A stretch of DNA of 64,000 nucleotides from an uncultured Planctomycetaceae bacterium (GTDB taxonomy: Bacteria > Planctomycetota > Planctomycetia > Isosphaerales > Isosphaeraceae): the NCBI GenBank assembly GCA_963833985.1, contig CAWIAD010000002.1, positions 4,896,001-4,960,000 of the forward strand. Reading direction: 5' to 3'. A program made the translations under genes and the position numbers. The notes under the pieces were generated by a model that was not told the origin of the DNA, searched no databases, and saw only the letters and a list, made by a program, of their open reading frames with translations. Positions 5,159 through 33,108 of this stretch are shown piece by piece; within the stretch, counting starts at the first letter, position 1; each line of letters opens with the position of its first letter.

Positions 5159-6937
5159 ATGAGTCGTCAGGATCAGGGAACAGCCGCCGACACGTCGGCC
5201 TGGTCGTCCGAGTCGACGGAAGGCCCGGTCCGCGACCTGACCGGCACGACCCTGGGCGACTTCGAGGTCAAGCGACTGATCGGCAAGGGTGGCATGGGTC
5301 AGGTCTACCTGGCCACTCAGGTCAGCCTGAGCCGATCGGTCGCACTCAAGGTACTGCATCCGCGCTACCTGTCCAAACCGGTTTATCTGAGCCGCTTCGA
5401 GACCGAGGCCACGGCAGTGGCCAAGCTGAACCACCCGAACATCGTCCACGTCTACACTCTCGGCTACGTCGACCAGGTTCGCTTCATCGCGATGGAGTAT
5501 GTCGAGGGCACGAACCTGCGCGATTATCTCAACAAGAAGGGGGCCCTCGACCTGCCCCTGGCGCTGTCGATCATGCGCCAGGCGGGTCAGGCGATCGGTG
5601 CGGCCGGCGAGGTGGGGCTGGTCCATCGCGACATCAAGCCCGAGAACCTGCTGCTCACCCGCAAGGGCCGGGTGAAAGTTGCCGACTTCGGGCTTTGCCG
5701 CGACCTGGGAGCGGATCGGCTGCACGTCACGCAGCCGGGAACGACCATGGGCACGCCGCTTTACATGAGCCCGGAACAAGCGCAGGGAAAGCCCCTGGAT
5801 CACCGCAGCGATCTTTACTCGCTGGGGGTCACCTTCTACCACATGCTCAGCGGCGAGCCCCCGTTTCGCGCCGAGTCGGCCATCGCCCTGGCCATGAAGC
5901 ACGTGACCGAGCAGCCGGTGAGCCTGCGGGTTCGCCGTCCCGACGTGCCCGCCGAGCTGGATCGGCTCGTGCTCAAGCTCATGGCCAAGAGCCCCGCGGA
6001 TCGCTACCCGTCGGCGGCCGAGATGCTGGTCGACCTCGCGAGGATCCGCAGCTCGCTGCAAGCGACTCTCGGTACCATGGGCGATGACAACGCCCTCTCC
6101 ATATCCCGGCAGTTCGAGGAGAACTCTCGGCCCTTCTCGAGCACCCCGAGCAGCCCATCGGGCACCAGCCTTCTGACCGGCAGCCAGAGCGGCGTCGGCG
6201 TCACGGCCACAGGGTCTCAACTTGCATCGCTCGTACGACGGATCGACCGTCCGATGACACTTCTCGCGGCCGGCCTGATCTTCGTCGTCGTGGGTGCGGG
6301 GCTGGGGTGGAACGCGCGGCCGGCGGATCTGCCGGAGGGCGAGGCCGCAACGCGCAGGCTGCCCGCACTGGCGGCGGAGCCACGCTGGGCCACCGTTCCC
6401 CGGCAGGAGACGGCCGAGGAACAGTACCGGTATGCCTTGCTCCGTGCCGCCGACCTGGATCTCGACGCCGCCTGGCTGGCCGTGCCGGGGTTTCATCCCC
6501 ATTCCTCGGAATGGGTCTCGCCGGCCTACCTCCAGTACGCGCGGCGACTCTACCGGCAGCGCGACCAAGATCGCCTGGTGCACCTGAAGGCGGACCTGGC
6601 GGCCTGGCAAGGCGCCAAGACCCCCGATCAGGAGCTGGCACAGATCATCGACTGCGGCATCGCGCTGCTCTCCAGGGACCTCGACGGCGTGATCGACGGC
6701 ATGTCGCGTATCGCCGCACCGGACGAACGCGCTCGGCCGGGTGCACGTGACGGAGTGAACCTGTATGATCCCGGTCTGATCGAGTTCTCGGTCGAGGTGG
6801 TTGCCGACGCGCTCAGGCTGGCGACACAGCCAGGTCCGCTGGCGTCGGATCTCAAGAAGCAGAAGCTGGCCGCCATTCAGAGTCGTCTGGCCGGTTACCT
6901 CAGAAGAGTTCAGATGTTAGAATGGGCCAATCGCTAG
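5159..6937 (+). CDS. Membrane Ser/Thr protein kinase (Hanks type)
   Basis: GKGGMGQV, VALK, HRDIKPEN, DFG, GTPLYMSPEQ motifs; one TM segment then a C-terminal domain. Confidence 0.95.
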   Translation: MSRQDQGTAADTSAWSSESTEGPVRDLTGTTLGDFEVKRLIGKGGMGQVYLATQVSLSRSVALKVLHPRYLSKPVYLSRFETEATAVAKLNHPNIVHVYTLGYVDQVRFIAMEYVEGTNLRDYLNKKGALDLPLALSIMRQAGQAIGAAGEVGLVHRDIKPENLLLTRKGRVKVADFGLCRDLGADRLHVTQPGTTMGTPLYMSPEQAQGKPLDHRSDLYSLGVTFYHMLSGEPPFRAESAIALAMKHVTEQPVSLRVRRPDVPAELDRLVLKLMAKSPADRYPSAAEMLVDLARIRSSLQATLGTMGDDNALSISRQFEENSRPFSSTPSSPSGTSLLTGSQSGVGVTATGSQLASLVRRIDRPMTLLAAGLIFVVVGAGLGWNARPADLPEGEAATRRLPALAAEPRWATVPRQETAEEQYRYALLRAADLDLDAAWLAVPGFHPHSSEWVSPAYLQYARRLYRQRDQDRLVHLKADLAAWQGAKTPDQELAQIIDCGIALLSRDLDGVIDGMSRIAAPDERARPGARDGVNLYDPGLIEFSVEVVADALRLATQPGPLASDLKKQKLAAIQSRLAGYLRRVQMLEWANR

Positions 6938-6992
6938 TCGCCTCCGCGGTTGCGCGTCTCGGGTAGACGGGCGGGGGTCGGGAGCACGGGTC

Positions 6993-8711
6993 ATGGCTTT
7001 ACTGAAGCGGATCAGCGGCGCCGCCGCCGGACAGATCATCGAGCTGAAGCAGGATCGGACCGTCATCGGACGGTCACCCGAGCATTGCCACGTGGTGCTC
7101 GATCCCAACGGCGTCAGCCGCCGTCATGCGGAGATCTACCGCAAGGGCGACGAGTATTTCGTGGCCGACCTGAACTCGCGAAACCAGACCAAAGTCAATA
7201 ACGGCAAGCTCTTCCCGGGCGCCGACCATCGCCTCGCTCCGGGCGACCGAATCAATATTTGCGATGTCGAATTTCTCTTTTACTACAAGCTGCCGGCGGG
7301 CGACGCGGAGGCAAATGGCGAGATCGTCATCGTCGCCGACGGCGACAGCGCTGAAGTGCCTCATCTGCATACGCTGGACGCCTCGCGGTCCAGTGCGATG
7401 GCGAGCATGGTCAAGCCCGAGCTGAAGCTCAAGGCCATCCTCGAGATCACGCGCAACCTCTCGACCGAGCTCGAGATCGACAAGGTGGCCCCGCGGATCC
7501 TCGATTCGCTCATGGAACTTTTCCCGCAGGCCGAACGGCTCTTCCTGATCCTCGTCGACCAGGAAACCAAGCGGCTGGTGCGCAAGGCGTTCCGCTGCCG
7601 CCCCAACCGCCGCGCCAACTTCTCGTCGACCATCCCGGCCGACGAGGCCCAGGTGAGCATCAGCCGGTCGATCGTGAACCACGTGCTGGTCCAGAAGAAG
7701 GCCGTGCTCAGCCAGGACGCGAGCATGGACAAGAACCTGCCGACCAGCGCCTCGATCGCCGATCTGAAGATCCGCTCGGTGATGTGCGTCCCTCTGGTCA
7801 CGCCCGACGGTCAGGCGCTGGGGATCTTGCAGCTGGATACCAGCGATCGCAAGCAGTTTCATCAGGAAGACCTCGATGTCCTCACCGCGGTGGCCAGCCA
7901 GGCGGCCATCTCGATCCAGAACGCCACCCTGCACGAGTCGCTGCTGGAACGGGAGCGGCTGGACCGCGATCTGAAGCTGGCCGAGCAGGTGCAGAAGCGG
8001 TTCTTACCGCAAGACGTGCCCGAGATCCCCGGCTACGAGTTCTTCGCGCATTATGATCCGGCCTACGAGGTGGGTGGAGACTACTACGACTTCGTTCCGT
8101 TGCCGGAGAATCGCTGGGCGGTCGCCGTGGGCGACGTCTCCGGCAAGGGAGTGGCCGCGGCGCTCATGATGGCCAAGTTTTCCGGAGACACCCGCTACTG
8201 CATCCTCACCCAGAACTCCCCGGGGGCGGCCGCCAGCGAGTTGAACAACCTGCTGCTTTCCGCTGGCATTGATGAAAAATTCATCACGCTCAGCCTGTGT
8301 GTGCTCGATATCGACAGCCGCACCCTGGCCTTGAGCTCCGCCGGCCACCCTCCTGTGATCATCCGCCGCGCGAGCGGTAAGGTGGAAGAGGTCGGCGAGG
8401 AGATCGCCGGCTTCCCACTGGGGATCGTGCCCGGCTCGGAGTACCGGTATCGCGAGGTCATCCTGAACGTCGGCGATGTCGCTGTCGTCTACTCCGACGG
8501 TGTCACCGACGCCCGCAATCTGCGCGAGGAAATCTACCACACCCGCGAGAATCCCCGGCTCCTGCGCAAGGTCGCCGAGGCGGCAGGCAGTCCGGGAATG
8601 GTCGGACGTGCCATCCTTCAAGATATCCGGGAGTATTCGACCGACCACGTTCAGGTGGACGATATCACCCTGGTGTGCTTCGGTCCCGTCGCGTCGCAGC
8701 CGTCACGTTGA
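6993..8711 (+). CDS. FHA-GAF-SpoIIE (PP2C-type) protein phosphatase
   Basis: FHA (IGRS...VSRRHA...SRNQT), GAF (IRSVMCVPL), SpoIIE (VGGDYYD, GDVSGKG, SAGHPP, YSDGV, DDIT). Confidence 0.93.
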   Translation: MALLKRISGAAAGQIIELKQDRTVIGRSPEHCHVVLDPNGVSRRHAEIYRKGDEYFVADLNSRNQTKVNNGKLFPGADHRLAPGDRINICDVEFLFYYKLPAGDAEANGEIVIVADGDSAEVPHLHTLDASRSSAMASMVKPELKLKAILEITRNLSTELEIDKVAPRILDSLMELFPQAERLFLILVDQETKRLVRKAFRCRPNRRANFSSTIPADEAQVSISRSIVNHVLVQKKAVLSQDASMDKNLPTSASIADLKIRSVMCVPLVTPDGQALGILQLDTSDRKQFHQEDLDVLTAVASQAAISIQNATLHESLLERERLDRDLKLAEQVQKRFLPQDVPEIPGYEFFAHYDPAYEVGGDYYDFVPLPENRWAVAVGDVSGKGVAAALMMAKFSGDTRYCILTQNSPGAAASELNNLLLSAGIDEKFITLSLCVLDIDSRTLALSSAGHPPVIIRRASGKVEEVGEEIAGFPLGIVPGSEYRYREVILNVGDVAVVYSDGVTDARNLREEIYHTRENPRLLRKVAEAAGSPGMVGRAILQDIREYSTDHVQVDDITLVCFGPVASQPSR

Positions 8712-8754
8712 ATGACCGGCTGATCCTTCTCTTCGCCTCCTCGCGCGGCCACCC

Positions 8755-10350
8755 ATGTCCGTCAAGATCAGCAATATCCGTCTGGACATCGACGATCCCG
8801 AAGAGACCCTGCCGGACCACGCCGCCCGCCGCCTGGGCGTCGACCGCCAGGCCGTCGCGCGGTGGAGAATCCTGCGCAAGAGTCTCGACGCCCGCCGCCA
8901 CGACGACCTGCACTTCGTCTACGCGATGGAAGTGGATGTCCCCGAGCTGGCCTCCAGGCCGATGGGCCAGGGATCGAACCCGGATGTCCGGGATTTCGTG
9001 CCGGACCGGTTCTGGTGGCCGGATCCCGGCAAGCAGCCGCTGGCACACCGGCCTGTGATCGTCGGCGCCGGACCGGCCGGGCTGATCGCCGGCTACCTGC
9101 TGGCCAGCGACGGCTATCGCCCGCTGATCCTGGAACGCGGGCGGGCCATCAAGGACCGCGTGGCGGACGTGCGCCGTTTCGATGCCGGTGGATCCCTCGA
9201 TCCCGAGAGTCACTACCTGTTCGGAGAGGGCGGCGCAGGGACCTTCAGCGACGGCAAGCTCACGTCCCGTAACTCCGGCCCGGACGTGCAGCGGATCCTC
9301 GAGATCCTGGCGGAATGCCATGGTAAGCCGTCCATCGTGTATGAACACCGGCCGCACCTGGGCTCCAACCGCCTGCCGCTGGTCGTACGGACCCTGCGCC
9401 GCAAGTTCGAGGAACGGGGTGGTGAGATCCGCTTTTCCTGCCGGGTCGAGGACCTGGAGATCCACAATGGCCGGCTCATGGGACTGTCCACCAGCTCGGG
9501 CCACATCCCGGCCCAGGTGGCGATTCTTGCCATTGGCCACAGCGCCCGTGATACCTACGGCATGCTGCTGCGCCGCGGCGTTCCCATGGAGGCCAAGCCT
9601 TTTCAGCTTGGCGTCCGGATCGAGCAGCCCCAGCAGCAGATCGATTCGGCGTGCTACGCGGACCGGGCCGGACACCCCGCCCTGGGAGCCGCCGATTATG
9701 CACTGTCGGTGCGTACGGGAACCGGCGATCTGTTCACCTTCTGCATGTGTGCCGGGGGATACGTGATGCCCAGCGTCAGCGAACCCGGCTACTTCTGCAC
9801 CAACGGACAGAGCGAGAGCCGGCACGACTCACCATTTGCCAACAGCGGCCTGGTCGTCACCATCGACCCCGCCTTGACGGGGAGCTCTCATCCCCTTGCC
9901 GGCATTCATTTTCAGCAGCGCTACGAGCGGCTTGCGTATCTCATCGGCGGCCGCAGCTACGCCGCGCCAATCCAGTGGGTGAGCGACTTTCTGCGCACCG
10001 TCTCCAGCCGCGGCGAACTTCCCTCGAGTTACTGCCGGGGGACCCTGGCCACCGATCTGGCCGGGCTCTTGCCGGAGCAAGTCATCGCAGCGCTTGTGCA
10101 AGGCTTGCCCATCATGAACCGGCGATTCGGCGGGATGTTCCTCAAGGAGGCCACGCTGACAGGCCCCGAGGCCCGCGGCAGCTCGCCGGTGCGGATCCTG
10201 CGTGATTCCGCCAGCCGCCAGAGCCCCGTCGCCAGCGGCCTTTACCCTTGCGGAGAAGGCGCTGGGTTCGCCGGTGGAATCATCAGCGCCGCGGTCGACG
10301 GTCTGCGGACAGCTCGGTCCATCGTCGCCACCTATGCGCCGTGTGCTTGA
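8755..10350 (+). CDS. FAD/NAD(P)-dependent oxidoreductase (uncharacterised FAD-dependent dehydrogenase family)
   Basis: GAGPAG, FGEGGAGTFSDGKL, TFCMCAGG, GEGAGFAGGIISAAVDG motifs. Confidence 0.88.
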   Translation: MSVKISNIRLDIDDPEETLPDHAARRLGVDRQAVARWRILRKSLDARRHDDLHFVYAMEVDVPELASRPMGQGSNPDVRDFVPDRFWWPDPGKQPLAHRPVIVGAGPAGLIAGYLLASDGYRPLILERGRAIKDRVADVRRFDAGGSLDPESHYLFGEGGAGTFSDGKLTSRNSGPDVQRILEILAECHGKPSIVYEHRPHLGSNRLPLVVRTLRRKFEERGGEIRFSCRVEDLEIHNGRLMGLSTSSGHIPAQVAILAIGHSARDTYGMLLRRGVPMEAKPFQLGVRIEQPQQQIDSACYADRAGHPALGAADYALSVRTGTGDLFTFCMCAGGYVMPSVSEPGYFCTNGQSESRHDSPFANSGLVVTIDPALTGSSHPLAGIHFQQRYERLAYLIGGRSYAAPIQWVSDFLRTVSSRGELPSSYCRGTLATDLAGLLPEQVIAALVQGLPIMNRRFGGMFLKEATLTGPEARGSSPVRILRDSASRQSPVASGLYPCGEGAGFAGGIISAAVDGLRTARSIVATYAPCA

Positions 10351-10639
10351 GCCGCGACGCTTATTCATGCCATCGAAACCCTCCACCTGGTGCCACCTCT
10401 CATCCCTCACGATCACGATCCTGCGTGTGCTCAAAGCGTCGATTAAAGCCGCCTAATGTTAAGGTAATGCAGCACAACGTTAATCATTCCTCAGCTTGGT
10501 TCCTTCCTTGCAGGGCATTCCCGTCAACTTGTTGAATTTGGCGAACATAGTTTTTTTTCATTGGACGGGCGACGAGTGCCCTTCCTAGCATGAGTGTCGA
10601 GAAGCGGGTCTGAGGGTCCGGCAAACCGGAGTGATCCTG

Positions 10640-12571: not shown

Positions 12572-15500
12572 TCACACCGTTTCGGGTGCCGATTCGATCT
12601 CTTCCGGACTTCCCGAAGGCTCTGCGCCATTTCCGTTTCCGTCGCGGACTGGTTCCCTGGCGGGCTCCGGCGCAGGCTCGGTTTCAGGTTCCCGCACCGG
12701 TCCGGGCCGGGCCTGGAAGCGGCGGCTGACCTCCTCGAGCCAGGCGTGGTCGGGCAGGCCGTAGGGCCGGAACTTCTCGATCTTGTTCTCTTCCTCGCTG
12801 AAGAAGAGGGCCCGGTTGGGGCCGAGCTTGCCGGCGGCCGGCGAATCGATGAGCGAGCTGCTATCGTTCGCGCTCATCTGGAAGAGCACCCGGATCTCGA
12901 ACTCCTTGAGTGCCTGGCGATCGAACGTGCGGTTCAGGTTGTTCACGCTGTCGCACCAGACCAGGGTATGGACGGCCACCGAGGGGCCATCCTTGAGGAT
13001 GGTCGCGAACGACTTCGACGGTGAGGCCGGCTTGTCCTCACCGAAGCTGGACGAGAAGCCGAAGTCGTCGTCGCCCTTGCGGATGTCGCGGAAGCGCTGG
13101 ATGTCGTAGATGAGCAGGTAGATCGGGGCCAGAGTCTCGGTATCCTCGTCCCTCCGCCGCTCCACGTCGGCGGCAATCTCACCCATGACCTTGCCGAGCT
13201 CGCGGGCGGAGACGGTCTTGACCGGGTGCGGGAGGTACCGCTCGAGCTTGCCCAGCTCGCCGGAAAGTGAAGAGTCCACCGGGCTGCCGTCCAGCAGGTA
13301 AAGCCGCAGGCCTCCCTTGCTGCGCGGGGGGTGCTGTGCGGCCACGCTCAACCCCGCCATCATCAGCATGGCCAGGGCGGCCTCGTCGTTCTGGCCGATG
13401 ATCAGGAGGTTGCTGCCGCTCTGCGGGCGGAAGACGGCGGAAGTCGGATCCTTGATCGCGATCGCGTCGCCCAGCCAGGCCTGCTCGAACCGGGGGAGTG
13501 TCGCGGGCCACTCGGCGCATCCAGCAGCGCGTTCAGGAGCGGGTTCTTGCTGGCGATCGCCGGCAGGTTCCCTTCGAACACGATGGGCGTCGCCGGCGGC
13601 CGGTTCTGGGCGCGGGCCAGGTCTTGCATGTCCCTGAGGTATTCTTCGCGCCGCTCGTCGGAGAGCCAGACCACCTGGAACAGGTTGTTCCCCTCGATCA
13701 TGCCGTTGGCGTCGTTGTAGATCGCCTCGCCAGGCCGTGTCAGCAACCGGGCCGCGGTATTGTCCTCGCTGAGGATCAGGTGCGCGTCGGCCTCGCTGCA
13801 CTGTAGTGCGATGCGTACGGCCATCTGGCCGAGCGTGGCCCTGGCCAGCGAGTACGCTCCGCCCAGGGTTTGCGAGCCCAGGTTGACGTGGATGCCGAAG
13901 GCCCGGCCTTGCCGAACCAGCCGGTCCAGCAACAGCGAGACTTCCTGCGAGATCTTGTCGTCCTCGACGAAGAACTCCTGGAACTCATCGACGATGAAGA
14001 GGATCCGCGGCATCGGCGTGTCGGGCCGGGCGTCGCGAAACCCCTTGAGGTCTTGCACGCCCACCTCGCGATACAGATCGCCGCGCCGTTTCAGTTCCAG
14101 GTCCAGGCGCTGGAGCACGCTGAGCCCGAACTCGCGCTCGCTCTCGACGGCGATGACCTTGGCGTGGGGCAGCTCGAAGGCCGCATAGACCTTGAACTCG
14201 ACGCCCTTCTTGAAGTCGATCAGGTAGAGCTCAAGATCGTCGGGGCTGTACCGCAGCGCCGAGTTGACTATCAGGGCATGCAGCAGGGTCGACTTGCCCG
14301 AGCCCGTCTTGCCGGCGATCAGCACGTGCTGGCTGGTTCCCTTGCCGAGGGTCAACGATTGCAGCTTGGTGGCGCCGGCCCGGCCCAGGGGGACGTCCAC
14401 GCCGCTCCGGCTGTCGCTGGCCCAGTACGCGTCTCGAGGCGGAGCGATGAAGTCGAACGGCACCTCCACGCGGTTGGCGTCGCGTGCTTTCTCGCCCACC
14501 AGGTGGAGGATCTGCGAAAAGGTTCCAGCGCCGGGCGGGGTGTCGAGCACCAGCGGGAAGCGGCCGAAGTGGCTGTCGCGCCATTGCAGCCGGTTCTCCT
14601 TCCAGTTGATGTTCACGCAGAAGGATTCCAGGTCCTTGAGCTGGCAACCGGCGGGCAAGGGGAGCTTGGTGTCCAGCGAGATGAGTGCGTACACTCCGCA
14701 CCGCGCTCCGGTGCTGACAATACTCATGAGCCGGCGCGCGGCCGACTCGTTGAAGCTGGTCGGGAAGTTGGCCACCACCAGCACCCGGAACGGCTCGGCG
14801 ACCTCGCCGGCGAAGGCGTTGTATTCCTCGATGGTCTCGAACTCGTTGCGCAGGTATTTCTGGATGACGTTCTCCATGTGCGCCTGGAGATCCGTGAGAC
14901 GCTGGTCGAAGTGGGGCGTTTCCGTCCAGATGCGGCTGGTGACCAGCAGCTCGTGGTAATCGGCCAGGTGCATGAACGCGGCGAAGTTCTCACCCAGTCC
15001 CACCGGGTCGAAGATGGTGAAGCGGACCTTGCCGGGGGGCACCGAGGTGAGGAACCGCAGCATCAAGGCCTGAAGCAGCTTCACGGCCTCGGGCTTGCCG
15101 GATTCGGCCGTCTTGATGAGCACAGAGGACTGGATGGGGAAGGGAATGAGGGCGGGGAGGTTCAGTTGCGTGGGACCGGCGTCCTTGAGGCGCGGATCGA
15201 CGGGCACGCCGCCCTGGAAATCGCCAAGCTCGATCTTGAACCGTCCGAAGGGGAGCGCCGGAGGCACCTCCGCGGGAGGGTTCCAGGCCTCCAGCGGCGT
15301 GCCGTTCCAGTCCAGGTAGCGGCGTGCCGATTCGTCGTTGACCTCGCCGGCCAGCCCGCCCACGCGGGCCAGACCCTCGGTCCAGGTGCGGATAAGCTTC
15401 TCCCAGGTCTGATCGTAGAGCTCCTTGGTCGCCTGGGTGGTCTTGCGGTGGTTCTCCTGAAGCTGGCGCGTGTCGCGCTCGTACGTCTCATCGAGCGCCT

Positions 15501-16644
15501 TGATGCGCGGCGGATACTCCTCGTCCACGCGTTTCAGCTCGGCATCGCGGCGTGCCGCAAGGTCGGTCATCCGGGCGGGATACCTCGCGTCGGCTTCCTG
15601 GCGGTCACGCTGCTGCCGTGCTTCGGCCTCGGCCAGCTTGCGTGCCAGCGTCTCGTCGGCTTTCTTCACTTCGCGTTCGCGGTTCTGTTCCGAGTCGCGC
15701 TGGCGGCGCTCGAATTCCGCCTTCACCCACTCCGCGGTCTCCGCGAGCAGGCGTTCGGCGTTCTCGAGCGCCCGCAGCAGGGGGTAGTAATGCAGGGCGA
15801 CCTTCGGCCGGGCCAGGCTGGCAAGACCGAAATAGCAGCCCGCGGCCAGCGCCACGGTGAGGAGCGCACCGGCAATCGCTCCCCCGGTCCAGCCGATCGT
15901 CAGCCCCAACCCGACGATGGCCCCAGCTCCCAGGGCCAGGAACGGCCAGACGAAGTTCTGAAGCTGGAGGAAGCCGGGTGTCTTCAATCGTTCCAGCGCC
16001 AGCAGCTCGTCGTCGGCGCGCTTGATGGCCTGCTGGAGCGTCGTCACCTGCGACATCTCGCCGGGATCGGTGGCGTCGGGATCGGTGGCCGCGGTCGTCA
16101 CGGCGACCACCGGAGGCGTCTGCGCCGAGGCTGCCGGCTCAACGCCGGCGAGCTTCTTGCAACGCGCCAGGACCGGCCGCGCCATCTCCTTGAGGTTCTC
16201 GTAGTCCGCGCGGCTGGCGGCCAGCATCTCCTCGTCGCGCTTCCGCGACTTGACCGTTCCGTCACGCGCCGCCTCGTACATCGCCAGCGCCTGCCAGCGC
16301 GCGTCCTCGTGCGTTTTCTTCGCCCGGTTGCGGTCCGACTTGGCCTGGGCGTCGATCTTCTGCTTGACCTGTGAGTACTCGGCCTGCGTCGCCTGGTTGT
16401 CACGCTCGAACGTCTGCACGATGGTGGCGCGCGCCTGCTGGTACTCCACCTCCAGCGCCGCCTTCTCCGACTTGAAGCGCGCCGCGCGCTGCCTGGACGC
16501 GTTCCGGAAGTCGTGCTCCTCGCGCTCGCGACGGCGATGAAAGACCAGCTCGGTCTCGGTCTCACCCTTGGCGCGTTCGGCGATGAGGGCTTCCAGGTCG
16601 GTCAGGGCAGCAATCTCTTTTTGAACCAGCGGTGATTCAGGCAT
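12572..16644 (-). CDS. FtsK/SpoIIIE-domain ATPase, EccC/EssC-like (1-bp frameshift near 13514; ~1357 aa if restored)
   Basis: Coiled coils, TM hairpin, three FtsK-like domains; the middle one has GKTGSGKS, IDFKKGVEF, IVDEFQE, RQGRAFGIH. ORFs 13402-16644 and 12572-13801 join as LLDA(P)EWPATLP on adding one base. Confidence 0.88.
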
Positions 16645-16689
16645 CTTGGGCGCAGTCCCGGTTTCATGTGAAAGGCAAAGTTGGCCGCG

Positions 16690-16905
16690 TCAGTCACTTT
16701 CCTGGCACTGGCGGCGGATCTTACCCAGCGTCTCGGAGAGCTTGTCCATTCCCACGATCGTGTGCTTGACCAGGTGGTCCACCGGATCGAGGTGGTGCTT
16801 CTCGAAGTCCTGAGCGACCTTGTCGGCCCAGGATTCGCGGGCGATATCCCACTTCTCGCGGAGATCTTTCAGTGCGTGCTGTAACCGCGCGGAATGTGCG
16901 CTCAT
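16690..16905 (-). CDS. Small WXG100-like helical protein
   Basis: 71 aa, helix-SWADKVAQDF-helix; ATGA overlap with the upstream gene. Confidence 0.7.
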   Translation of the reverse strand: MSAHSARLQHALKDLREKWDIARESWADKVAQDFEKHHLDPVDHLVKHTIVGMDKLSETLGKIRRQCQESD

Positions 16906-17639
16906 GCCTTCTGCTCCTGGCCCCTGGGCGGCTCCTTCAAAGATGCGGGATCTGCCATGGCGGATGCCGTTTCAGCCGCCACGGCCGCGTGTTCTTGCGA
17001 ATCCTGCAACGCCTCTGTCTCTCCCTCTCCCTGGGCAGGGTCCGTTGCGATCGGCCCGCTCGCCGGGCTGGCCGCATCCGGGCCGCCAGCACGGGCCGCG
17101 GCCGACGATCCGGCCGAGCCAGACTCTCCAGACCCATCCAGCCGAGGAGCAGCGGGCGCCTGCAACGCCAGGTAGGATTCGAGAGAATCGATCATCTTCG
17201 CCAGGCTCCCCAGCGACTTGTCCACACCCCCGGACAGATGATCAGCCAGCGGCGTGGCGCGCGAAGTATACTCGGACATGGCGTGGTGGAAGATCGGGAT
17301 CAGCTTTTTGACCGCCTCCACTTTCTCCTCCGCAACTCGCAGCTTGCGCTGCGCCTCGCGGAGGGCCTCCTTCTGCTCCGTATCGGAGATCGCGTCACTG
17401 CCTTGCTGGGAGATCCTGCGGCGCGAGAGCTCGGTCCGCGCGGTCATCATCGCTTCGTGCCGGCGCTTCACCTGCATCTGCCAGTATGAGAGCTGGTCGC
17501 GCTCCAGCCAGTCGCGCATTCGCTTCAGTTCCATGTCCACCCCACCCAGCGCATTGCGCGCCTCCTCGGTGAAGGTGACCAGCGCCACCCGGAAGTCTTT
17601 CAAAGCCTGGACCGAAAGGACTTTCGCGGAATCGGCCAT
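16902..17639 (-). CDS. Long helical/coiled-coil protein of the WXG100-FtsK operon
   Basis: ATG at 17639 follows GGAGG; alpha-helical N-terminal ~160 aa ending LESYL, then a low-complexity Ala/Ser/Gly tail. Confidence 0.75.
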   Translation of the reverse strand: MADSAKVLSVQALKDFRVALVTFTEEARNALGGVDMELKRMRDWLERDQLSYWQMQVKRRHEAMMTARTELSRRRISQQGSDAISDTEQKEALREAQRKLRVAEEKVEAVKKLIPIFHHAMSEYTSRATPLADHLSGGVDKSLGSLAKMIDSLESYLALQAPAAPRLDGSGESGSAGSSAAARAGGPDAASPASGPIATDPAQGEGETEALQDSQEHAAVAAETASAMADPASLKEPPRGQEQKA

Positions 17640-17780
17640 GGAGTGGACCCTCCGTCGGTGGCCAGTATTCATTGAGCAGCGGTAAACTGTCCCACCCGCG
17701 GTTCCGGCGTCTTCGCCGACGCCCTGGGTTTGCGGCCCGCAGTTCGCCGCCCACGGCTCGCCACGCGCCAACTTGTCGAA

Positions 17781-18053
17781 TCATCGCTGCTGCAAGTACT
17801 CGTCCGCCCGGTCCGCCTTGCGCATCAGGAAAGGGATATGCTGGTTGGTGGCATCGACAAAACGCTTGACGACCTGCATGGTCTGCTCGAATTCCTCGAC
17901 GAACTTGTCATGCTCGCGGTCGCGCCAGCTCTGGCCCAGGCCGGAAACCTGGCCGTGGAGCACGGTCAACTGGTTCATCAGGTCGTTGTTGAACTGCTTG
18001 AGCCGCGCAGCGAACCGGCGGATTTCTTCCGGATTCACAATGGCCTGTGCCAT
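17781..18053 (-). CDS. WXG100 family type VII secretion target
   Basis: 90 aa: MAQAIVNPEEIRRFA...GQSWRDREHDKF...ADEYLQQR; central W-x-D turn between two amphipathic helices. Confidence 0.85.
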   Translation of the reverse strand: MAQAIVNPEEIRRFAARLKQFNNDLMNQLTVLHGQVSGLGQSWRDREHDKFVEEFEQTMQVVKRFVDATNQHIPFLMRKADRADEYLQQR

Positions 18054-18871: not shown

Positions 18872-21575
18872 TCAGAACACTTCGTCCAGGAATCTCGTTC
18901 CCAGCTCCTGGACCGGCTGGAAGGCCGGTGAGGCGGCGTACGCCTGCAAGCTGCGCAGCATCTGGCGGGCCGCCGGGTTCCTCGCTGCCAGGCCCGGCAG
19001 ATCGATCGTGCAGACCAGCAGCCGCCCTGCACCGACGCGGGCCTCGAAGAGGTTCCCGAGCTTGTGGTTGCGGGCAAAGTTGTCAATCACCTGGATGATC
19101 GGCCGGAAGCCAGGCGGAGTGCCATCGAGCACCACGCTGCGGCTCTGGTCGAGCAGCTCATACCATTGCCAGTTCGAGTGCGAATCCGTGGGGAAGCCCC
19201 TGAGCGCGGGATGGGCGGGATCGCAGAGGATCCCCATCGTGTTCGGCTGCTGGTCCGGGAACCAGACCGGGCTCCAGAACACGGGCAGAAACCGGCCGGG
19301 CAACGATTTCGACGTGCCGAGCTTGCGCGGGAACAAGAGCACCACTTTGCCGGCGGCCAGCGCCGACCTCGTGGCGTCATCCCAATCGTCGCTCACGAGC
19401 AGGCCAGACGGCGGAGGCTCGGCCGGTCCAGGCGGATAGACCCAGATGTCCCACTCATTGGAGAACTCGAACCCGGTCCCGCCCAGGCCGAGCGTGACGA
19501 CCAGACGGCAAGGCGCCGAGGCGCTGTGGAGCGGGGCGCGGATGGTCCCCAGCCGCGTCAGCGCCTCCGGTTGGTACCTTGCGAGGCTCGAAAGTCCCAG
19601 CAGCCACCGTGCGGCCGCGGTCGTCGCGGATCGTCCAGGCCGGCGCGGCGTCGGCCAGCGGCCCCGGCCCGTAATGAGCCACCTCGGCTTCGGCCACGAA
19701 ACTTTCGTCGCTGGTATAGATGCGCCGGGGCATCCGCACGAGCGGCACCGTCGGCCCACAGTAGCGGCGATGAGCCTCCGGAGTCACGATTCCCTTGGAC
19801 TCCCAGAATGGATCCAGCAGCCCCACCAGCGCAGTCCCCTGGCCCGGATAGTCGTGCAGGTCCAGCAGCGAAAAGCCTGCATAGTTTGGCGTCCGCAGCA
19901 GGATCTCGATCTCCTCCTTGTAAAGCAGTGCGGCGTGCCGGCCGGTCGCCTCGAAGAACCGGGGGGCCAGGTCGAGCATGTGCCTGGACTGGAGGTCCGC
20001 GCGGACGATCTCGAAGTTCCGTGCGGCGAGCACTCCGTTGTACTTGGCGATCTCACCCAGGTTCGGATAGAAGGTCCACTGACCGATTTCATGACCGGTG
20101 AGCGGCCGGTCCTGGCGCGCGACCTCGGCTCCGAAGTCGCGGTCGGTGCCCGGGCCGTGCACGCCGCGCGGGCCTCCCTCGGTGAACTGGCGGTTGGCCG
20201 TCCCCTGGCCCGCGGACGGCGACGCGTAGAGATGCCGGGGGTCCTCGCGGCGGAGCCGGTCAATCCACCGCGAAAGCAGCGCGTCCTTGCCTCCGTACTC
20301 GTTCCCCAGGGTCATCAGGCAGAACGAAGGATGATTGCCGTAGTTGCGGACGATGCGCAGCAGCTCGGCTTCGACGAAGGCGTCACGCGCGGGGTCCGAG
20401 CCGGCATCCACGTTCGCCAGGGGGCCCTCCGGCTGCACGATGACGCCTTCCAGGTCGGCAGCCTCGAAGGCCGCTTCCGGAGGGCACCAGGAATGGAAGC
20501 GCAGGAAGTTCAGGCCGTACGACTTGATCGTCCGGGCGATTCGCCGCCACTCGCCCACGGTGGCCGGCGGATAACCGGTGCGCGGGAAGATCGCGCATTC
20601 CAGGGTCCCGCGCAGCAGGATCGGCCGGCCGTTCAGGGCGAACCGCGTGCCAAGAGCGGTGAACTCGCGCAACCCGAACCGCACGGCCTTCTCGTCGCGG
20701 CAGGTCTTGCCTTGCGTCGCGGCCGACACCTGGGCGCTGGCGACAAGCAGCCGGGGCGAGAATTCGTCCCAGAGCGGTGCGTCGGGCCCCAGGTCCAGCT
20801 CCCGCACCACCTCCGCGGAGCGACCGAGCCGCACATCCAGATGATCGCTGGCCAGGACCGCGCCACCGCCGCGCGGTTTGACCATGAGCTCCAGCTGCGC
20901 CGTCACGGGCTGCTCCAGCGTGCTCGTCAATCTCACCCGGACCCGGGCCCGCCTGTGCTCCACGTCCGGGTAAACCTGGAGGTCCTCGATGGCCACGGCA
21001 TCGATGGCGCGGATCTCCAGGCTGCCCACCAGGCCGTTCCAGTTCGTCTGCGTCCCATCGTAGAGGATCGATACGAAGCCGCCCAGGTCGAGCTTCCTCG
21101 TGTTGTCGACCCGGATCGTGAGCCGGCGCGTGCCGGCGATCGTCCCCAGGTCGTGCACGTGCGGCGCCACCAGGCTGTCCTGCATTCCCGGCACGGCCTT
21201 GCCGTCGATCCAGACCCGGGTTTCCCAGTGCACCCGTTCGAGCACCAGCGAGATGCGCTTCCCCTTCCAGGAGCCGGGAATCATCAGCTCGCACTGGAAC
21301 CACGCCTGCCCCTCATAGGGGTAGAGGCGGTACAGCCCGTCGAGCGACGGCTTCGCGGTGTTCGGCGCGCCCAGCCGGGCCTCGTCGGTCGAGCCCGGCA
21401 GCGTGATCGTGCCGGCGAGCTCGCGCTCGTACCAGCGTTCGGCCTCGCCCACCCGCCCGGGATCAAGCTGCACCCGCCACTGGCCCGCGATGGACCGGGT
21501 CTCCGCGGCCCTCAGGCCCGGCGCTCCCGAAAGAACACCAATTCCCAGTGCCAGGGTCAGAAAGAAGCGATTCAT
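18872..21575 (-). CDS. Glycoside hydrolase family 2, secreted (frameshift near 19565)
   Basis: Signal peptide, sugar-binding N-domain (LERVHW, RVDNT), FGLREF, YGLNFLRFHSWCPP, NHPSF...GNE; continues in ORF 18872-19759. Confidence 0.85.
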
Positions 21576-21702
21576 GATGAGAGTCCATCCAGGTCCCATG
21601 GAGTTCAACGGGCGGCAGTGAGCTCGCCCCCATGTGCGCATGCCGGGGCTGGCCGTGCGGAGCCAGGCGGCGCCACAGGACAATACCCTCGACGTCGCTT
21701 GC

Positions 21703-21869
21703 CTCTTCATCTCTCGTGGGACACGCTTCCATTCGTGTCTCTTCATCTCTCGTGGGACACGCTTCCATTCGTGTCTCTTCGTTCCCACTGATACATTTTA
21801 TTTTAATCTTGATATTTACTATTGTTTGCATTTTTTTTCGTGACAAGATCGGAGTCTTGTCCCACGAGA
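21703..21869. repeat. 36-bp tandem repeat (x2) plus an inverted partner; REP-like
   Basis: ctcttcatctctcgtgggacacgcttccattcgtgt at 21703-21738 and 21739-21774; AT-rich spacer; gtcccacgaga (21859-21869) is the reverse complement of tctcgtgggac. Confidence 0.8.
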
Positions 21870-28235: not shown

Positions 28236-30146
28236 GGTCGGGACGCACTCCCCGGCGGCGCCACAGCGCCGTCAGGCCCACGAGGATCGCCAGTGAGGCA
28301 CAACCCTCGGCCACGCGATCGGGTTCGGCCGCGGGGTCCCGCTCGTCGCGGAGGACGTCGAGGGCCGATCGGCCCAGCGTCGCGCGCGCGATGCGGTCGA
28401 GCCGCTCGCATTCCCCGAGGAATCCCGGCTCGGCCTCGATGAGCCAGGACGCCGCGCCGGCCGGGGCCGAGCCGGCGTCCGGATAGACGAACGCGAGGCT
28501 CGGAGGCTGTCGCCGCGGGCGATCGGACGGCCCCGCCTCGGGCCGGGCCGCGAGGTCCTCGAGCCCGGCGAGGAGCCCGGCGGCGTCGGTCACGACGAGG
28601 GCCCGGCGGGCCGGCAGGTGAGCCCGCCGACGCGCCGCGGTGACGCAGAGATCCCTCGCGCCTGCGCGTCGGGAGGCTGGTCGCGGACCATCTCGGCGAG
28701 CCGCGCGGCGAGGTTCCGAAGCGCGTCTGGCGTCGCGGCGGAGAGCGGCAGGATCCATGACCGGCGCGTCGCCAATACTCCCCGAAGCGGAGAGTCGTGC
28801 GCCTGGAGGACGGCATGCACATTCGCCCCGCCGAATCCGAAGCTGCTGATCCCGGCGATCCGCCTGCCGGCGCCGGCCGGCCAGGGGATTGGCTCCCGGC
28901 AGACGACGAGTCCGGCCGTGTCCCCGTCCGATTCGGTGATCGGCTCGTCCACGTGGAGGCTCGGCGCGATCGTCCGGTGTTGCAGGATCAGGCACGCCTT
29001 GATCAGTCCCGCGACGCCCGCCGCCGCCTCGGTATGGCCAAGGTTCGACTTCAGCGAGCCGAGGTAGCAGGGCCGGCCGGGCGGTCGGCCCCTGGACAGG
29101 ACCTCGCGGAGCGCCTGCAACTCGATCTGGTCGCCGAGCGGCGTGCCGGTCCCGTGTGCCTCGAAGTAGCCGACCTCCGCCGGGTCGACACCCGCCCCGC
29201 GGTAGGCCGCGCGGAGCAGGTCCACCTGGGCCCCGGCGCTGGGGGACATCAGCCCGTTGCTGCGGCCGTTGGTGTTGGCGGCCGTCGCCCGGATCAGGGC
29301 GATGACCTGATCGCCGTCCGCCTCGGCGTCGCCCAGCCGCTTGAGGACGACCAGCCCCGCCCCCTCGCCGCGGACGATCCCATCGGCGCGACGATCGAAC
29401 GCCCGGCATCGCCCCGTCGCGGAGAGCAGGCCGGCGCGTCGGTAGACGACATCATTGCGACGGAGCTGGATGAGCGAGACCCCGCCGGCGATCGCCAGCG
29501 AGCATTCGCCGATGCGCAGGCTCTGGGCCGCCATGTGGACGGCCATCAGCGACCCCGAGCACGCCGAGTCGATCGCCACGCTCGGCCCGCGCAGGTCGAG
29601 GACGTACGAGACCCGGTTGGCGATCACCGAGTCGGAGGCGCCCGTCCCGCTGAAGGCCCCGAGGAAGTCGGGGTCGGCGGGGATCGCCAGCTCGTAGTCG
29701 CCGTTCTGCGCGCCGACGAACACGCCGGTCGCGGTGCGCCTCAGCCGGTCGGGGGGGATCCCGGCCGATTCCAGGGCCTCCCAGGCCAGCTCCAGGACGA
29801 GCCGCTGCCGGGGGTCGACGTGCCGCGCCTCGCTCGGCGAGATGCCAAAAAACCGGGCGTCGAAGTGCTCCAGGTCGTCGAGGAAGCCGCCGGCATCGCC
29901 GCCGAGGGCGGGCCGCCGCCCGGGCGGCGGGGGACCTACGGCGCATCGGCCCCGGATCAAGAGGTCCCAGAGTGCCGCGACCGACGGCGCGCCGGGATAC
30001 CGGCAAGCCATGCCGACCACCGCGATCGGCTCGCTCTGGGCCCGCTCGTACGCGGCCAGGCGCGCCTTCAGCTCGCGGATCGCCTGAAGCGCCCGGAGCA
30101 TCGTCTCGTCGCTCGCCGCGCCACCGTTGTCATGGGGTCCGCTCAT
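28236..30146 (-). pseudogene. Type I PKS, KS plus partial AT, truncated (also 1-bp frameshift near 28653)
   Basis: N-terminal docking helix, EPIAVVGMACR, DSACSGS, HGTGT, KSNLGH, SSFGFGG; AT-like sequence stops at LWRRRGVRPD, before the GHSxG site. Confidence 0.85.
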
Positions 30147-33108
30147 AATCCGAGTTCATCCAGTTCGCTCAATAGCATCGCCTCGGCATCGCCCGGCGCG
30201 AGGGCGGGACCCGGCGGGGGCGGGCCGGTCCACTCGCCCGCGGCGACGTCGAGCGTCGCGGCAAGGTGGTCGGCGATGCGCTCAATCGTCGGGAAATCAA
30301 AGATCAGGGTCGACGCGAACAGCCGCCCGGTCCGTCGCTCCAGCCGGGTCTTCAGCTCCACCCCCATGAGCGAATCGAAGCCGAAGCGGCAGAACTCCAC
30401 GCCGGTCTTGACCTCGGACGGGTCGTCAAGGCCGAGCGTCCGGGCGACCTCATCGCGGACCAGGCCGACGATCGCGGCGCGACGTTCCTCACCCGGCAGC
30501 TCCCGCAGCCTCTCGCACCAGGACGACACCGCCGCGCCCGGGATGGCGGCATCGTCCGCGGAGGCGGCGGGCTCGTGCAGGCCCGGCCCCAGGCAAGCCA
30601 GGTCGATCACGATCTTGCCGACGTGCCGGGCCTGCGCCATGAACCGGAAGGCGTCGGCGACCCGATCGCCTGGGAAGCTCCGGACCGGGAGCGGAGGCAG
30701 CGACCCGTCGGCGACCGCCGCGAGCAGCTCGCCCAGCAGGCGCGGCAGCAGCCCGGGACGCTCCCGATCGACCTCGCGGAGGTCAAGGATCGTGTAGGCG
30801 ACATCGGGCCGGATCGCCGCGACCCGCTCCGGGGCCCAGGTCCCGACCTTGCCAATCTCGACGAATCGCCCGCCCTCGACAAGGAGTTCCAGGCTCCTCG
30901 GGATCATCTCGCCGGACAGGCTATTCAGAACGAGGTCGACTCCGCGGGCGCCGGCGGCGGCGCGGATCGCGGTGGCGAAGTCGGGCGATCGCGAGTCGGC
31001 CACGGCCGCCACGCCTCGCGATCGCAGCACATCCCATTTCCCGCGGCTCGCCGTCGCGTAGACCTCGGCCCCGGCGCGGGCCGCCAGGTTGACGGCCGCG
31101 AGCCCCACCCCGCCGGCCGCGGCGTGGATCAGGACGCGGTCGCCCCGACCAATCCGCCCGAGCTCGTGCAGGGCGCAGGACGCCGTGAGGTAGGCTATCG
31201 GCAGCGCGGCCCCGCCCTCGGCCGGCAGGGCCGCCGGCCGCGCCGCGACGTGGGACGCGCGGGCCAACACGTGCGAGCCGAGCCCGCCCTCGACCGGTCC
31301 GGCGACCACGGCATCGCCGACCGAGAAGCGGTCGCCCCCCGCCCCGACTGCCACGACCCGCCCCGCCACCTCAAACCCGTACGGCCAACTCGACGGCGCC
31401 TCGAGCACCCCCAGCGCGAGCAGGACGTCGCGGAAGTTCAGCCCGGCCGCGTCGACCGCGATCTCGACCTCGCCGGGCCCGGGCGCGCGTCGCGGGTGTG
31501 GGACGAAGGCCAGCCGCTCCAGCGTGCCAGGCGCGGCACTGGTCAGCCGGAGCGACGACCCAGATCCCCGGCCTTCGGACGGCCCGTCGGGAATCCAGAT
31601 GCCACGACGCCGGGACAAATCGACAAATCGGCAGGTGGCGCCAGCTTCTCGCCGCGGAGGACCCGCTTCAGGACCTTTCCCGTCGGGCCCCTGGGGAGCG
31701 ATTCGGCGAACTCGATCTGCCCGGGGACCTTGTTCGGAGCCAGCGACCCCCGGCAGTGAGCCACCAGCTCCGACGCCGTGACTCGCGCGCCGGGCGTGGT
31801 CACGACCCGGGCGGCCACGACCTCGCCGAGGAGCTCGTCGGGGATCCCGAACACGGCGGCCTCCGCCACGCAGGGGTGCCGGCCCAGGACGCCCTCGATC
31901 TCGGCGGGGTACGCCTTCAACCCCCCGGTGTTGATCATGTCCTTGACGCGATCCAGCAAGTAGAAGTAACCCTCCTCGTCGCGTGTCCCGATATCGCCGG
32001 TATGGAACCAGCCGTCGCGGATCGCCTCGCATGTCGCCTCCGCCCGGCCCCAGTAGCCGAGCATCTCGTTCGGGCCGCGGATCGCGATCTCGCCCACCTC
32101 TCCGGCCGCAAGTTCCGCGCCGGTCTCGCATGAGACGACCTTCATCGCGACCCCCTCGATGGGCGTGCCGATCGAGCCGGGCCGGTAGCGGTCGCGATGG
32201 TTGTAGGACGCGAACGGCGAGGTCTCCGTCAGGCCATAACCCTGGTTGATCGGCCGGCCGAACTTCGAGAGCCAGCCATCCTCGACCGGCCGGGGCAAGG
32301 GCGAGGCTGCCGAGAAGAAGAGCCGGACGCCCGGGAACGCTCCCGGATCGGCAGCATCGAGCAAGATCCGGAAAACGGGGGGGACCGCGAACACCATCGT
32401 CACGCCGTCGTTGACGATCGATCGGAGGACCTCCCCGGGATCGAACGCCCGGTGCAGGACGATTGCGGCCCCCGCCTGGAGGGCCGCGTTGAGCACCGCG
32501 TTCTGTCCGAAGCAGTGGAACAGCGGCAGGAACAGGAGCAGCCGGTCGTCGGGGTGAATCCCCAGGTGGCTCCGTTTCGACAGCGAATTGAAGAGGACGT
32601 TCGCGTGGGAGAGGGTCGCTCCCATGGGGTGCCCCGTCGTGCCCGAGGTGTAGACGATGGCCGCGGGGTGGTCCGGAGGGACGTCAACCACCGGATGCGT
32701 CGCGATCGCCGGAGCAGGCCATCCGTCGCCGAGGCCGACGACGACCGGCGGGTCCGGCCTGCCACCAATGCCGGCTGCGACCGCCTCCGGGCGGAGCGTG
32801 AGGACCACCTTCGCGCCGCAGTCGCGGACGACGAAGGCGAGCTCCTCGGCCGTCAGGCGAGGGTTGGCCGAGACGGCGATCGCGCCGAGCCGGACCGTGC
32901 CGAGGTAGCCCTCGATGAATTCAGGTACGTTCGGCAAGGACAGCACGACGCGGTCGCCCGTGCCGACGCCGAGCGCCGCCAGCCCGGCCGCAACGGCCCC
33001 GGACCGGCGGTCGAGCGTGGCCCGGTCCAGAGAACGGCCCTCGAAGACCAGGCTCGTGTCCCGTGGCGCCCGGCATTCCGGGCCCTCCGGGAGTCTTCCG
33101 ATGTTCAT
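30143..33108 (-). pseudogene. PKS loading module: acyl-AMP/CoA ligase - enoylreductase - ACP, interrupted by an 8-bp duplication
   Basis: A domain (YTSGTTG, GYGLTE, FHTGD, PTGKVLK), ER (GLNFRDVL, HAAAGGVG, HVGKIV), ACP (GFDSLM); removing one acaaatcg copy at 31615-31630 gives a single 985-aa ORF. Confidence 0.8.

Follow-up and report, generated by a model that had tools for sequence, protein, structure and literature searches.

A four-gene WXG100 and FtsK-family ATPase operon of Planctomycetota, a candidate minimal type VII-like exporter

Described systems and layout of the planctomycete operon

To our knowledge, studies of type VII secretion have been confined to Actinomycetota and Bacillota, in which several membrane proteins are needed. 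EccB, EccD and EssB/YukC are the membrane parts of the known systems. A pair formed by a WXG protein and a three-domain ATPase was already noted in planctomycetes in 2012, as “mobile T7SS”: the corresponding passage (PMC3482391, Table 1, note 6) describes a solo WXG linked to a YueA-like ATPase with three HerA/FtsK domains, the middle one active. Two other relatives are the EssC-like module of the type III-A CoCoNuT/TerY-P islands (described in part of PMC11090510) and the HP0062/HP0066 “WXG100 secretion system” cluster of Helicobacter (passages of PMC4978471 and PMC3397514). The literature searched contained no functional study of the HP0062/HP0066 family. The examined supplements of a Planctopirus limnophila transposon paper contained one FtsK and no WXG100 or YukE entry, and the terms “type VII” and “WXG” were absent from a Verrucomicrobium paper.

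The locus analyzed here lies in a 64,000-nucleotide stretch of planctomycete DNA (the window) and consisted of a minus-strand run of four genes, A-B-C-D. Their number, common orientation and positions were as originally predicted:

17781-18053, minus strand: gene A, 90 aa, SWRD, a WXG100 protein of the HP0062 type (PF06013, 3FX7, WRD alignment)
16902-17639, minus strand: gene B, whole, 245 aa (ORF)
17160-17639, minus strand: conserved domain of B, about 160 aa, predicted long helical hairpin (AlphaFold, profile scores)
16902-17159, minus strand: variable low-complexity tail of B, rich in A, P, S and E, predicted to be disordered (composition, model, domain scan of relatives)
16690-16905, minus strand: gene C, 71 aa, SWAD, short and WXG100-like, W-x-D (alignment, profile match)
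12572-16644, minus strand: gene D, FtsK-family ATPase, frameshifted (Pfam, profile and fold comparison)
15823-15951, minus strand: two predicted membrane-spanning segments of D, residues about 232-274, hardly any loop between (hydropathy scan)
13663-14406, minus strand: active ATPase domain of D, GKTGSGKS, FIVDEFQ, QGRAFGIH (motifs, alignment)
13500-13515, minus strand: frameshift in D, likely an assembly error (one base short of close relatives)

C overlapped B by ATGA, an arrangement for translational coupling, and a promoter/terminator scan of the operon gave chance-level results. The diderm planctomycete host that had been proposed was supported by the presence of lpxC and by the nearest named ATPase relatives (Isosphaeraceae and one unclassified Planctomycetales record). 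Operon neighbors were variable: among the best 80 of 470 loci from the genome scan, nearly all planctomycete, no neighbor family occurred in more than 11, and neither a recurring defense gene nor a conserved neighbor indicating a DNA-transfer region was seen.

The planctomycete operon shared the ATPase layout and the WXG partner with “mobile T7SS” (D had three HerA/FtsK domains with only the middle one active, and its solo WXG was linked to the ATPase), planctomycetes are among the hosts named in that passage of PMC3482391, and D grouped with Helicobacter/proteobacterial ATPases. Neither a B or C component nor a membrane anchor or stalk is mentioned in the same passage, and it terms the system mobile, whereas the planctomycete form tracked host families and survived operon break-up.

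The CoCoNuT/TerY-P module, as described in that part of PMC11090510, likewise has three ATPase domains, of which only the central one is described as active, a long N-terminal coiled coil, and a pair of WXG100 proteins (the WxG motif is missing from one) with a coiled-coil protein between them; the ATPase of one example (Caballeronia, L107) fell in the same clade as D. However, its coiled-coil protein carries a nuclease and is followed by a small protein, its ATPase has no membrane segments, and it belongs to a defense island. In the planctomycete operon B had no nuclease, B and C were adjacent, D had two hydrophobic segments and the operon stood alone, and it was not assigned to this module.

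A resembled HP0062, reported to be a homodimer (passages of PMC4978471 and PMC3397514), in its WRD turn. A Helicobacter plasmid locus (L108) had the order WXG, coiled-coil protein, small protein, ATPase, with an ATPase of the D clade which was shorter (823 aa) and had no counterpart of the long N-terminal arm of D. There, the homologues of A and D flanked a WHH nuclease and a SUKH immunity gene, in favor of export, whereas the planctomycete operon had neither of the two.

The T7SSa, T7SSb and T7SSc-j systems also combine a WXG100 substrate, a membrane-bound multi-domain FtsK-type ATPase and a carrier domain with a small helical partner, and EccC/EssC have four NTPase-like domains (both from part of PMC11217815). 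In T7SSa/T7SSb, EccC/EssC go together with EsxA, and the LXG toxin with Lap1/Lap2. D had only three RecA-like/NTPase-like domains, which counts against export, and differed from T7SSa/T7SSb in its long stalk, in a coiled coil that takes the place of the FHA domains and in a separate ATPase clade; the host is LPS-bearing, and no linked YukD/EsaB was found. EccB, EccD and EssB/YukC (PF05108, PF19053, PF10140) gave no match in the host genome (96% complete), with positive controls, and their absence also argues against an exporter; LXG gave no match in the same genome. A YukD match there was rejected as a component, being located in an unlinked Ub-E2-E1-JAB operon, and a second WXG100 match (C1:2529314) was rejected because it fell within a coiled coil at the C-terminus of a larger membrane protein.

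The ATPase and its relation to the membrane

The single ATPase ORF of about 1357 aa in the original prediction had to be corrected: a 1080-aa ORF was followed by the C-terminal part in another frame, a frameshift near 13505 which had gone unmentioned. GC3 periodicity changed frame between 13584 and 13494, and the junction was read through in one frame in 16 of 17 informative related loci; L018 broke near the junction, in a genome with several other shifts in its D gene. In the same window aroA was likewise divided between frames (59116-60449), so that the frameshift in D is probably an assembly error, likely an indel.

D matched Pfam FtsK/SpoIIIE and was far under the TIGR03924/03928 cut-offs. 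Exactly one GxxxxGK[ST] was present in 60 of 62 aligned D proteins and, judged by motifs, only the middle ATPase domain was active, in favor of export; in EssC, the Walker motifs of D1 are the only ones needed for export, according to a section of PMC13355648. The model of an intact D homologue (L002, residues 110-1305, pTM 0.54) had three alpha/beta domains and a predicted 190-residue stalk. Profile (E 4e-36) and fold comparison (E 1.7e-25, L002 model) both gave T. curvata EccC (4NH0) as the closest solved structure, and EccC, EccC5 and YukB ranked above FtsK and TcpA, also favoring an exporter.

In a 27-row tree (planctomycete rows reduced, the degenerate, long-branched second domain of L081 and an Arthrobacter row left out) the D family formed its own clade (support 100/97), beside the D1 and D2 domains of EccC/EssC and the DNA translocases, and separate from FtsK/TcpA (100/97 and 100/99). 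The original prediction had named clustering with FtsK/TcpA as evidence against a type VII/ESX-like system, and no such clustering was found. That reading itself stood in part: A is a WXG100 protein, C has its best, though weak, PDB match in EsxA and the model of B is a long hairpin, but D lies outside the EccC/EssC clade. It is highly improbable that D is a DNA translocase or a conjugation coupling protein with the small genes as accessories. The Pfam match and the presence of FtsK and TcpA lower in the structure match lists would agree with such a role; its separate clade, the canonical FtsK encoded elsewhere in the genome, the strict WXG100 partners and the lack of a conserved transfer-region neighbor (best 80 of 470 loci) argue against it.

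At least one membrane-spanning segment was predicted in 65 of 68 full-length D relatives. No segment was predicted in the Caballeronia and Rhodococcus (L106) members, the Helicobacter member was marginal, and the D homologues covered in part of PMC11090510 have none either, suggesting that the core activity of the family may not need a membrane pore. Two further features weigh against export: D lacked a periplasmic domain and had just two hydrophobic segments, and the modeled stalk, if straight, would keep the motor far from the membrane.

These anchor-less kin, the very long predicted stalk and the missing channel partners (EccB/EccD/EssB) would also suit a membrane-tethered motor which, on the cytoplasmic side, assembles, moves or dismantles rods or filaments of A/B/C, for membrane shaping, as a scaffold or in stress response, and exports nothing. 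The WXG100 pair EsxEF reportedly forms filaments and binds membranes, in agreement with such a role. We regard it as rather unlikely: both the toxin-immunity pair in the related operon and the arrangement of B as carrier plus cargo position suggest that the family serves export, although B itself had no cargo.

The small helical proteins and the cargo position

A passed the Pfam WXG100 profile PF06013 (43.6 bits, cut-off 27.3) but not TIGR03930 (32.5 vs. 44.85). The likeness to Helicobacter HP0062 that had been proposed for its SWRD turn was confirmed (PDB 3FX7, E 7e-6), and the W-R-D turn, with the same motif as in HP0062, was invariant in 50 of 50 aligned rows. The predicted helix-turn-helix protein is thus a WXG100 hairpin and not a DNA-binding HTH, and A is likely an EsxA-like core substrate. 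C had no Pfam match, but W26 and D28 were invariant in 50 rows; its profile aligned best in the PDB with S. aureus EsxA, on the Trp turn (E 0.008, weak), and matched A proteins weakly. The nearest named Atlas cluster was WXG100 at 0.85, a lead only. C is likely the partner of B. Comparisons between the A, B and C profiles were not significant (hhalign). A hydrophobic signal-like segment was absent from A (50 of 50 rows), B (46 of 49) and C (50 of 50), in favor of this kind of export.

The AlphaFold model of B had pLDDT above 90 across residues 11-160, with helices at 10-78 and 87-158. The B profile scored 21.9 and 24.3 bits against the effector-position proteins of L144 and L106 (none of 200 shuffles reached these scores, and coiled-coil controls stayed at or below 8.5), and the N-termini of the L144, L106, L114 and L107 proteins matched the B domain above all 200 shuffles. 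At the sequence level, the B hairpin matches the N-terminal domain which carries putative toxins in the island versions, and the two appear related. Several results speak against this: the score against the Helicobacter toxin was -4.1 (171 of 200 shuffles as high), neither of two L115 proteins was convincing, hhalign against single effectors was not significant, and Foldseek returned only generic coiled coils, none at E 0.001 or below. The B profile found nothing meaningful in a PDB sequence search.

Where B had a disordered tail, its kin carried a putative nuclease or an Imm33-like domain. B showed no toxin domain in any of the 40 complete operons, and the B-C gap was at most 207 bases; both observations favor a domesticated exporter. 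The 26 long relatives scanned among the best 150 of 3265 B matches had no toxin domain, and 21 of them had an Imm33-like domain at the cargo position (19 of 21 above the Pfam cut-off). Such a domain was also present in L088 and L122; most B proteins, including this one, had none. A word search for longer B fusions gave three proteins, two of them rejected as B+C joins which look like frame slips; this search was weak, because it missed the Imm33 fusions.

With no toxin at the cargo position and no immunity gene, the system is likely domesticated, and we tentatively favor, at a little under an even chance, a toxin-less minimal exporter across the inner membrane. The four inherited parts would work together as a type VII-like machine: D, with its predicted membrane anchor, would drive helical-hairpin proteins through the inner membrane. 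If type VIIb systems are a guide, A may be an EsxA-like homodimer required for export, and B with C (perhaps also A) may form a rod recognized by D; LXG toxins are accompanied by two small WXG100-like partners (passages of PMC9600955), which fits this arrangement. The same carrier domain bears a putative nuclease in the island versions, but in planctomycetes it is followed by nothing more than a disordered tail or an Imm33-like domain, suggesting that the system has a non-toxic role, in the periplasm or in the cell envelope.

The exporter might instead deliver toxins encoded elsewhere, which would travel on the A/B/C rod or have carrier domains of an unrelated kind. Putative nucleases do occur in island versions, one of which (L144) lies in a planctomycete genome (G300) that also has the toxin-less operon, and system genes can work from separate loci (family f4). 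The L144 B-like gene was missed by the genome search for B, so that distant carriers can escape it. Nevertheless, remote toxins are unlikely, considering that both B-domain genes of the host genome were toxin-less, that the other 38 positive genomes had one B match each, and that neither the 26 long relatives among the best 150 of 3265 B matches nor the LXG search of the host genome yielded a toxin.

Still less probable is a defense device, in which the rod (with the Imm33-like domain where present) would sense incoming toxins or phage, or act as a decoy for them, and would be released or activated by D. The Imm33-like domain at the cargo position, listed in part of PMC3482391 as an immunity family for HNH-type toxins, and the location of kin in TerY-P/CoCoNuT defense islands would fit, but most B proteins are without this domain, the flanking genes are variable with no recurring defense gene (best 80 of 470 loci), and descent looks vertical.

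Co-inheritance and descent in Planctomycetota

A, B, C and D each matched the same 39 of 301 Planctomycetota genomes, so that the joint conservation on which the original prediction depended was observed; the 39 genomes are related and are not independent observations. In family f4, the genes were at 2-4 separate places in 13 of 14 positive genomes (in the closed genome G157, D at 0.235, A at 0.711, C at 1.936 and B at 2.664 Mb). Co-inheritance and retention after dispersal both favor the exporter; strict retention of four parts after operon break-up would equally fit a fixed cytoplasmic machine. The system was not found in the other 262 of the 301 sampled genomes, indicating that it is not a universal cell-biology part, against the cytoplasmic motor.

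When host-family labels were placed on the ATPase tree (40 labeled of 65 rows), 7 family changes were counted vs. 23.7 for shuffled labels. This agreement with host families speaks for vertical descent and against mobility, and the patchy distribution could reflect loss or old transfer.

To the 2012 pair these data add the four-gene co-inheritance, even with dispersed genes, the vertical descent, a toxin-less B hairpin matching a toxin carrier and sometimes joined to an Imm33-like domain, and a D clade separate from EccC/EssC and FtsK/TcpA whose closest solved structure is EccC. It is possible, if somewhat doubtful, that they represent a third major type VII-like branch, with one ATPase polypeptide as the whole membrane apparatus. 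Early in Planctomycetota, a toxin-delivery module would have been domesticated into a toxin-free, four-part housekeeping machine exporting or remodeling WXG100 rods at the inner membrane, sometimes with an immunity-type domain in place of the toxin, and selected even after gene scatter.

A four-gene version in an LPS-bearing phylum offers a direct test of whether an EccC-like ATPase alone moves WXG100 proteins over a membrane, and bears on the role of WXG100 proteins with no toxin to deliver. The planctomycete form was also present in records of Singulisphaera, a cultured genus; being small and toxin-free, it gives convenient access to the HP0062/HP0066 family.

Gene layout and the reading frame of the ATPase gene

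The type VII-like operon was read from the sequence, as originally predicted, as four co-oriented genes on the minus strand, with C coupled to B by an ATGA overlap with the stop codon of B.

Genes of the operon
Gene A, 17781-18053, minus strand: 90 aa; Pfam WXG100 (43.6 bits, cut-off 27.3 bits)
Gene B, 16902-17639, minus strand: 245 aa; without a Pfam family
Gene C, 16690-16905, minus strand: 71 aa; without a Pfam family
Gene D, 12572-16644, minus strand: FtsK/SpoIIIE domain (Pfam)

The predicted likeness of A to Helicobacter HP0062 was recovered (PDB 3FX7, E 7e-6), and Bacillus EsxB entries matched about equally. The W-x-D of C was invariant in the alignment, and the best PDB match to the C profile was EsxA (E 0.008). 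D had been described as one open reading frame of ~1357 aa, which did not hold: a 1080-aa frame stopped at 13402, the final ~310 residues lay in another frame, and the GC3 pattern changed frame near 13500. The junction was read through in one frame in 16 of the 17 related loci in which it was readable; the exception, L018, had a break near the junction, and its genome showed several shifts in the D gene. The second D copy of the host genome was also split across frames, as was aroA (EPSP synthase, 59116-60449). Because relatives read through and these two genes were likewise split, the frameshift in D is more likely an assembly indel than a real lesion. Further genes had a split look (18872-21788 and 60609-61918), and the split-looking genes of the window together suggest indel errors in the assembly. 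Polyketide-synthase-like and acyl-CoA-ligase-like frames, judged from sequence only, occupied 28593-33108 (minus strand).

Conservation, co-inheritance and descent

A strong D match (best E < 1e-60) was present in 34 of 40 relatives, the remaining 6 having canonical FtsK only, and the A-B-C-D order was present in 15 of 19 fetched loci. In the scanned part of the species genomes 470 loci were confirmed, of which the best 80 were analysed: 40 were complete, 22 were truncated at a contig end and 18 were partial although the contig extended far enough (7 D, 6 C-D and 5 B-C-D). Each flanking gene family occurred in at most 11 of these best 80 loci.

That the four genes are conserved together was supported by an evenly drawn sample of 301 Planctomycetota genomes. 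B, A, D and C each served as a separate query, and every query matched the same 39 genomes; none of the four genes was found in the other 262 (related genomes in this count are not independent observations). One family (probably Planctomycetaceae, by ATPase tree position) had 14 positive genomes, and in 13 of them the genes were scattered over two to four places; reading the neighbourhoods placed all four genes apart in a closed genome (G157) and showed three sites separated by 1.6-1.8 Mb in another (G032). The other 25 positive genomes had an intact operon in 24 cases and a copy cut by a contig end in one (G107). That all four were kept once the operon had come apart is good evidence that A, B, C and D form one obligate machine.

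The host genome, which carries lpxC, held a second copy, B-C-D without A (contig C1:2996598-3001497, locus L143), with a frameshifted ATPase. Such A-less copies formed their own clade within Isosphaeraceae, which suggests that A is shared. The ATPase of the host grouped with Isosphaeraceae sequences, and the FastTree tree of 65 planctomycete ATPases (40 carrying submitters' family labels) required 7 family changes where shuffled labels required 23.7, a pattern consistent with mainly vertical descent of D. Three records labelled Ca. Kuenenia or Alcaligenaceae (L054, L055, L042) had ATPases close to planctomycete ones; these are likely mislabelled bins, since the Kuenenia-labelled pair nested inside Planctomycetaceae.

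The ATPase and a putative minimal exporter

D comprised an N-terminal coiled coil, two hydrophobic segments (residues ~232-274), a long helical stalk and three RecA-like domains; at least one hydrophobic segment was found in 65 of 68 full-length relatives. The model of an intact homologue (L002, residues 110-1305; mean pLDDT 81.5, pTM 0.54) showed one helix of 190 residues leading into three alpha/beta domains. Walker A and B motifs were confined to the middle domain, and one GxxxxGK[ST] was present in 60 of 62 proteins. The profile search (E 4e-36; FtsK 6e-9, TcpA 3e-8) and the fold search (E 1.7e-25; FtsK 1.8e-8) agreed on Thermomonospora EccC as the closest solved structure. In an unrooted tree of 27 motor domains, with groups labelled by us from record annotation, the planctomycete proteins grouped (100/97) with those of Helicobacter, Caballeronia, Rhodococcus and Deinococcus plasmids. 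The first domains of EccC/EssC (94/89), the second domains (100/98) and FtsK/TcpA (100/99) fell outside this group. D thus did not cluster with the DNA translocases, and DNA translocation appears highly improbable.

In the host genome (96% complete; controls positive) no match was obtained for EccB, EccD or YukC/EssB, none of which had been recognisable in the window, or for LXG. The YukD-family gene of this genome lay 4.5 Mb away in another operon:

Ubiquitin-like operon, host contig C2:388361-392555 (locus L142, about 6362-10556): YukD-family protein, E2 (UQ_con), E1 (ThiF) and JAB protein

A membrane protein with a long C-terminal coiled coil, adjoining a large repeat-containing protein (C1:2529242-2533147, locus L022), was rejected as a weak false WXG100 match; we take it to resemble a MotA/TolQ-type gene.

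On the best, if tentative, reading the system may be a minimal exporter, in which D, likely a ring, would recognise both a dimer of A and a rod of B and C. The one active ATPase domain of D would power their crossing of the inner membrane, probably into the periplasm, as no outer-membrane part is known. This mechanism is borrowed from type VIIb secretion, where the accessible parts of the sources report that EsxA is a homodimer required for export and not bound to the toxin complex, that of the Walker motifs only those of D1 are needed (PMC13355648), and that LXG carriers require small WXG100-like partners (PMC9600955). The main objection is that D has just two membrane segments and a very long predicted stalk, and that kin without segments exist (hydropathy here; also the accessible part of PMC11090510). 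These features make a motor acting on WXG100 rods from the cytoplasmic side a serious rival, if a somewhat unlikely one.

B, its island relatives and earlier descriptions

In the model of B, two helices of ~70 residues formed a hairpin and the tail was disordered; Foldseek returned no specific structural match. B measured 159-245 aa in 39 of the 40 complete operons, the exception having 360 aa, and no more than 207 bases lay between B and C in any of them; these operons therefore contained neither a toxin domain nor a usual immunity gene, in agreement with the original prediction. Toxins supplied in trans seem improbable, and a decoy or defence role decidedly so.

In related islands the gene in the B position was longer. 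The Helicobacter plasmid (L108) had a WHH nuclease and a SUKH immunity gene, and the Caballeronia locus (L107) sat within a TerY-P-type island. One planctomycete (G300) had a stand-alone operon and also an island version (contig C3, L144, 1-15700). The island contained genes for a helicase, PLD, a sigma-54-type ATPase and a D-like ATPase bearing a hydrophobic segment, two WXG-like genes, a gene for a B-like protein whose C-terminal domain is unclassified, a C-like gene, vWA and DnaJ-TPR. This C-terminal domain was shared with a Rhodococcus protein (L106; 33% identity, E 1e-13), had no Pfam match and is presumably ParB-like. The B profile scored 24.3 (L106), 21.9 (L144, in register at both ends), 16.7 (L114) and 12.6 bits (L107), each above all 200 shuffles, whereas the 42 coiled-coil controls reached 8.5 bits at most. 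The profile did not match the Helicobacter toxin or two candidates from a Rhodococcus plasmid (L115). From these matches, B is probably the carrier domain of the family minus the toxin.

A library-wide B profile search gave 3265 clusters. Among the best 150, 26 proteins of at least 260 aa were scanned: 21 had an Imm33-like domain (19 of them above cut-off), one was a WXG100 fusion and none matched a toxin family; one further long protein, outside these 26, was a B+C join. Imm33-like fusions were common among B relatives. An Atlas cluster of 433 members (Imm33-like in 64%) scored 0.83 and is a lead only. Fusions of B to an Imm33-like domain were also encoded in two compared loci (L088:6533-7612 and L122:5055-6077).

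The four-gene system is real and strongly conserved, and its kind is already known from comparative genomics. The accessible part of PMC11090510 describes the island form (two WXG100 proteins and a coiled-coil nuclease) and credits a 2012 Ter-system paper with stand-alone copies; HP0062/HP0066 are treated in PMC4978471 and PMC3397514, in the parts accessible; and the accessible text of PMC11217815 lists T7SSc-j for Gram-positive phyla, with planctomycetes and Helicobacter unmentioned there. In the open-access literature (subscription journals lying outside this scope) we found neither an experimental functional study of the D/WXG100 family nor any account of B or C, of the form lacking a toxin or of the fusion to an Imm33-like domain. 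Possibly new to specialists are the co-inheritance of the four parts, strict even where the operon has broken up, the vertical descent, and the toxin-less carrier B with an Imm33-like replacement cargo.

On the Rhodococcus plasmid (L115:2472-5678), Hsp70, TPR and GrpE genes preceded the D-family ATPase, and a DnaK homologue is listed in the literature with the Helicobacter WXG100 cluster.
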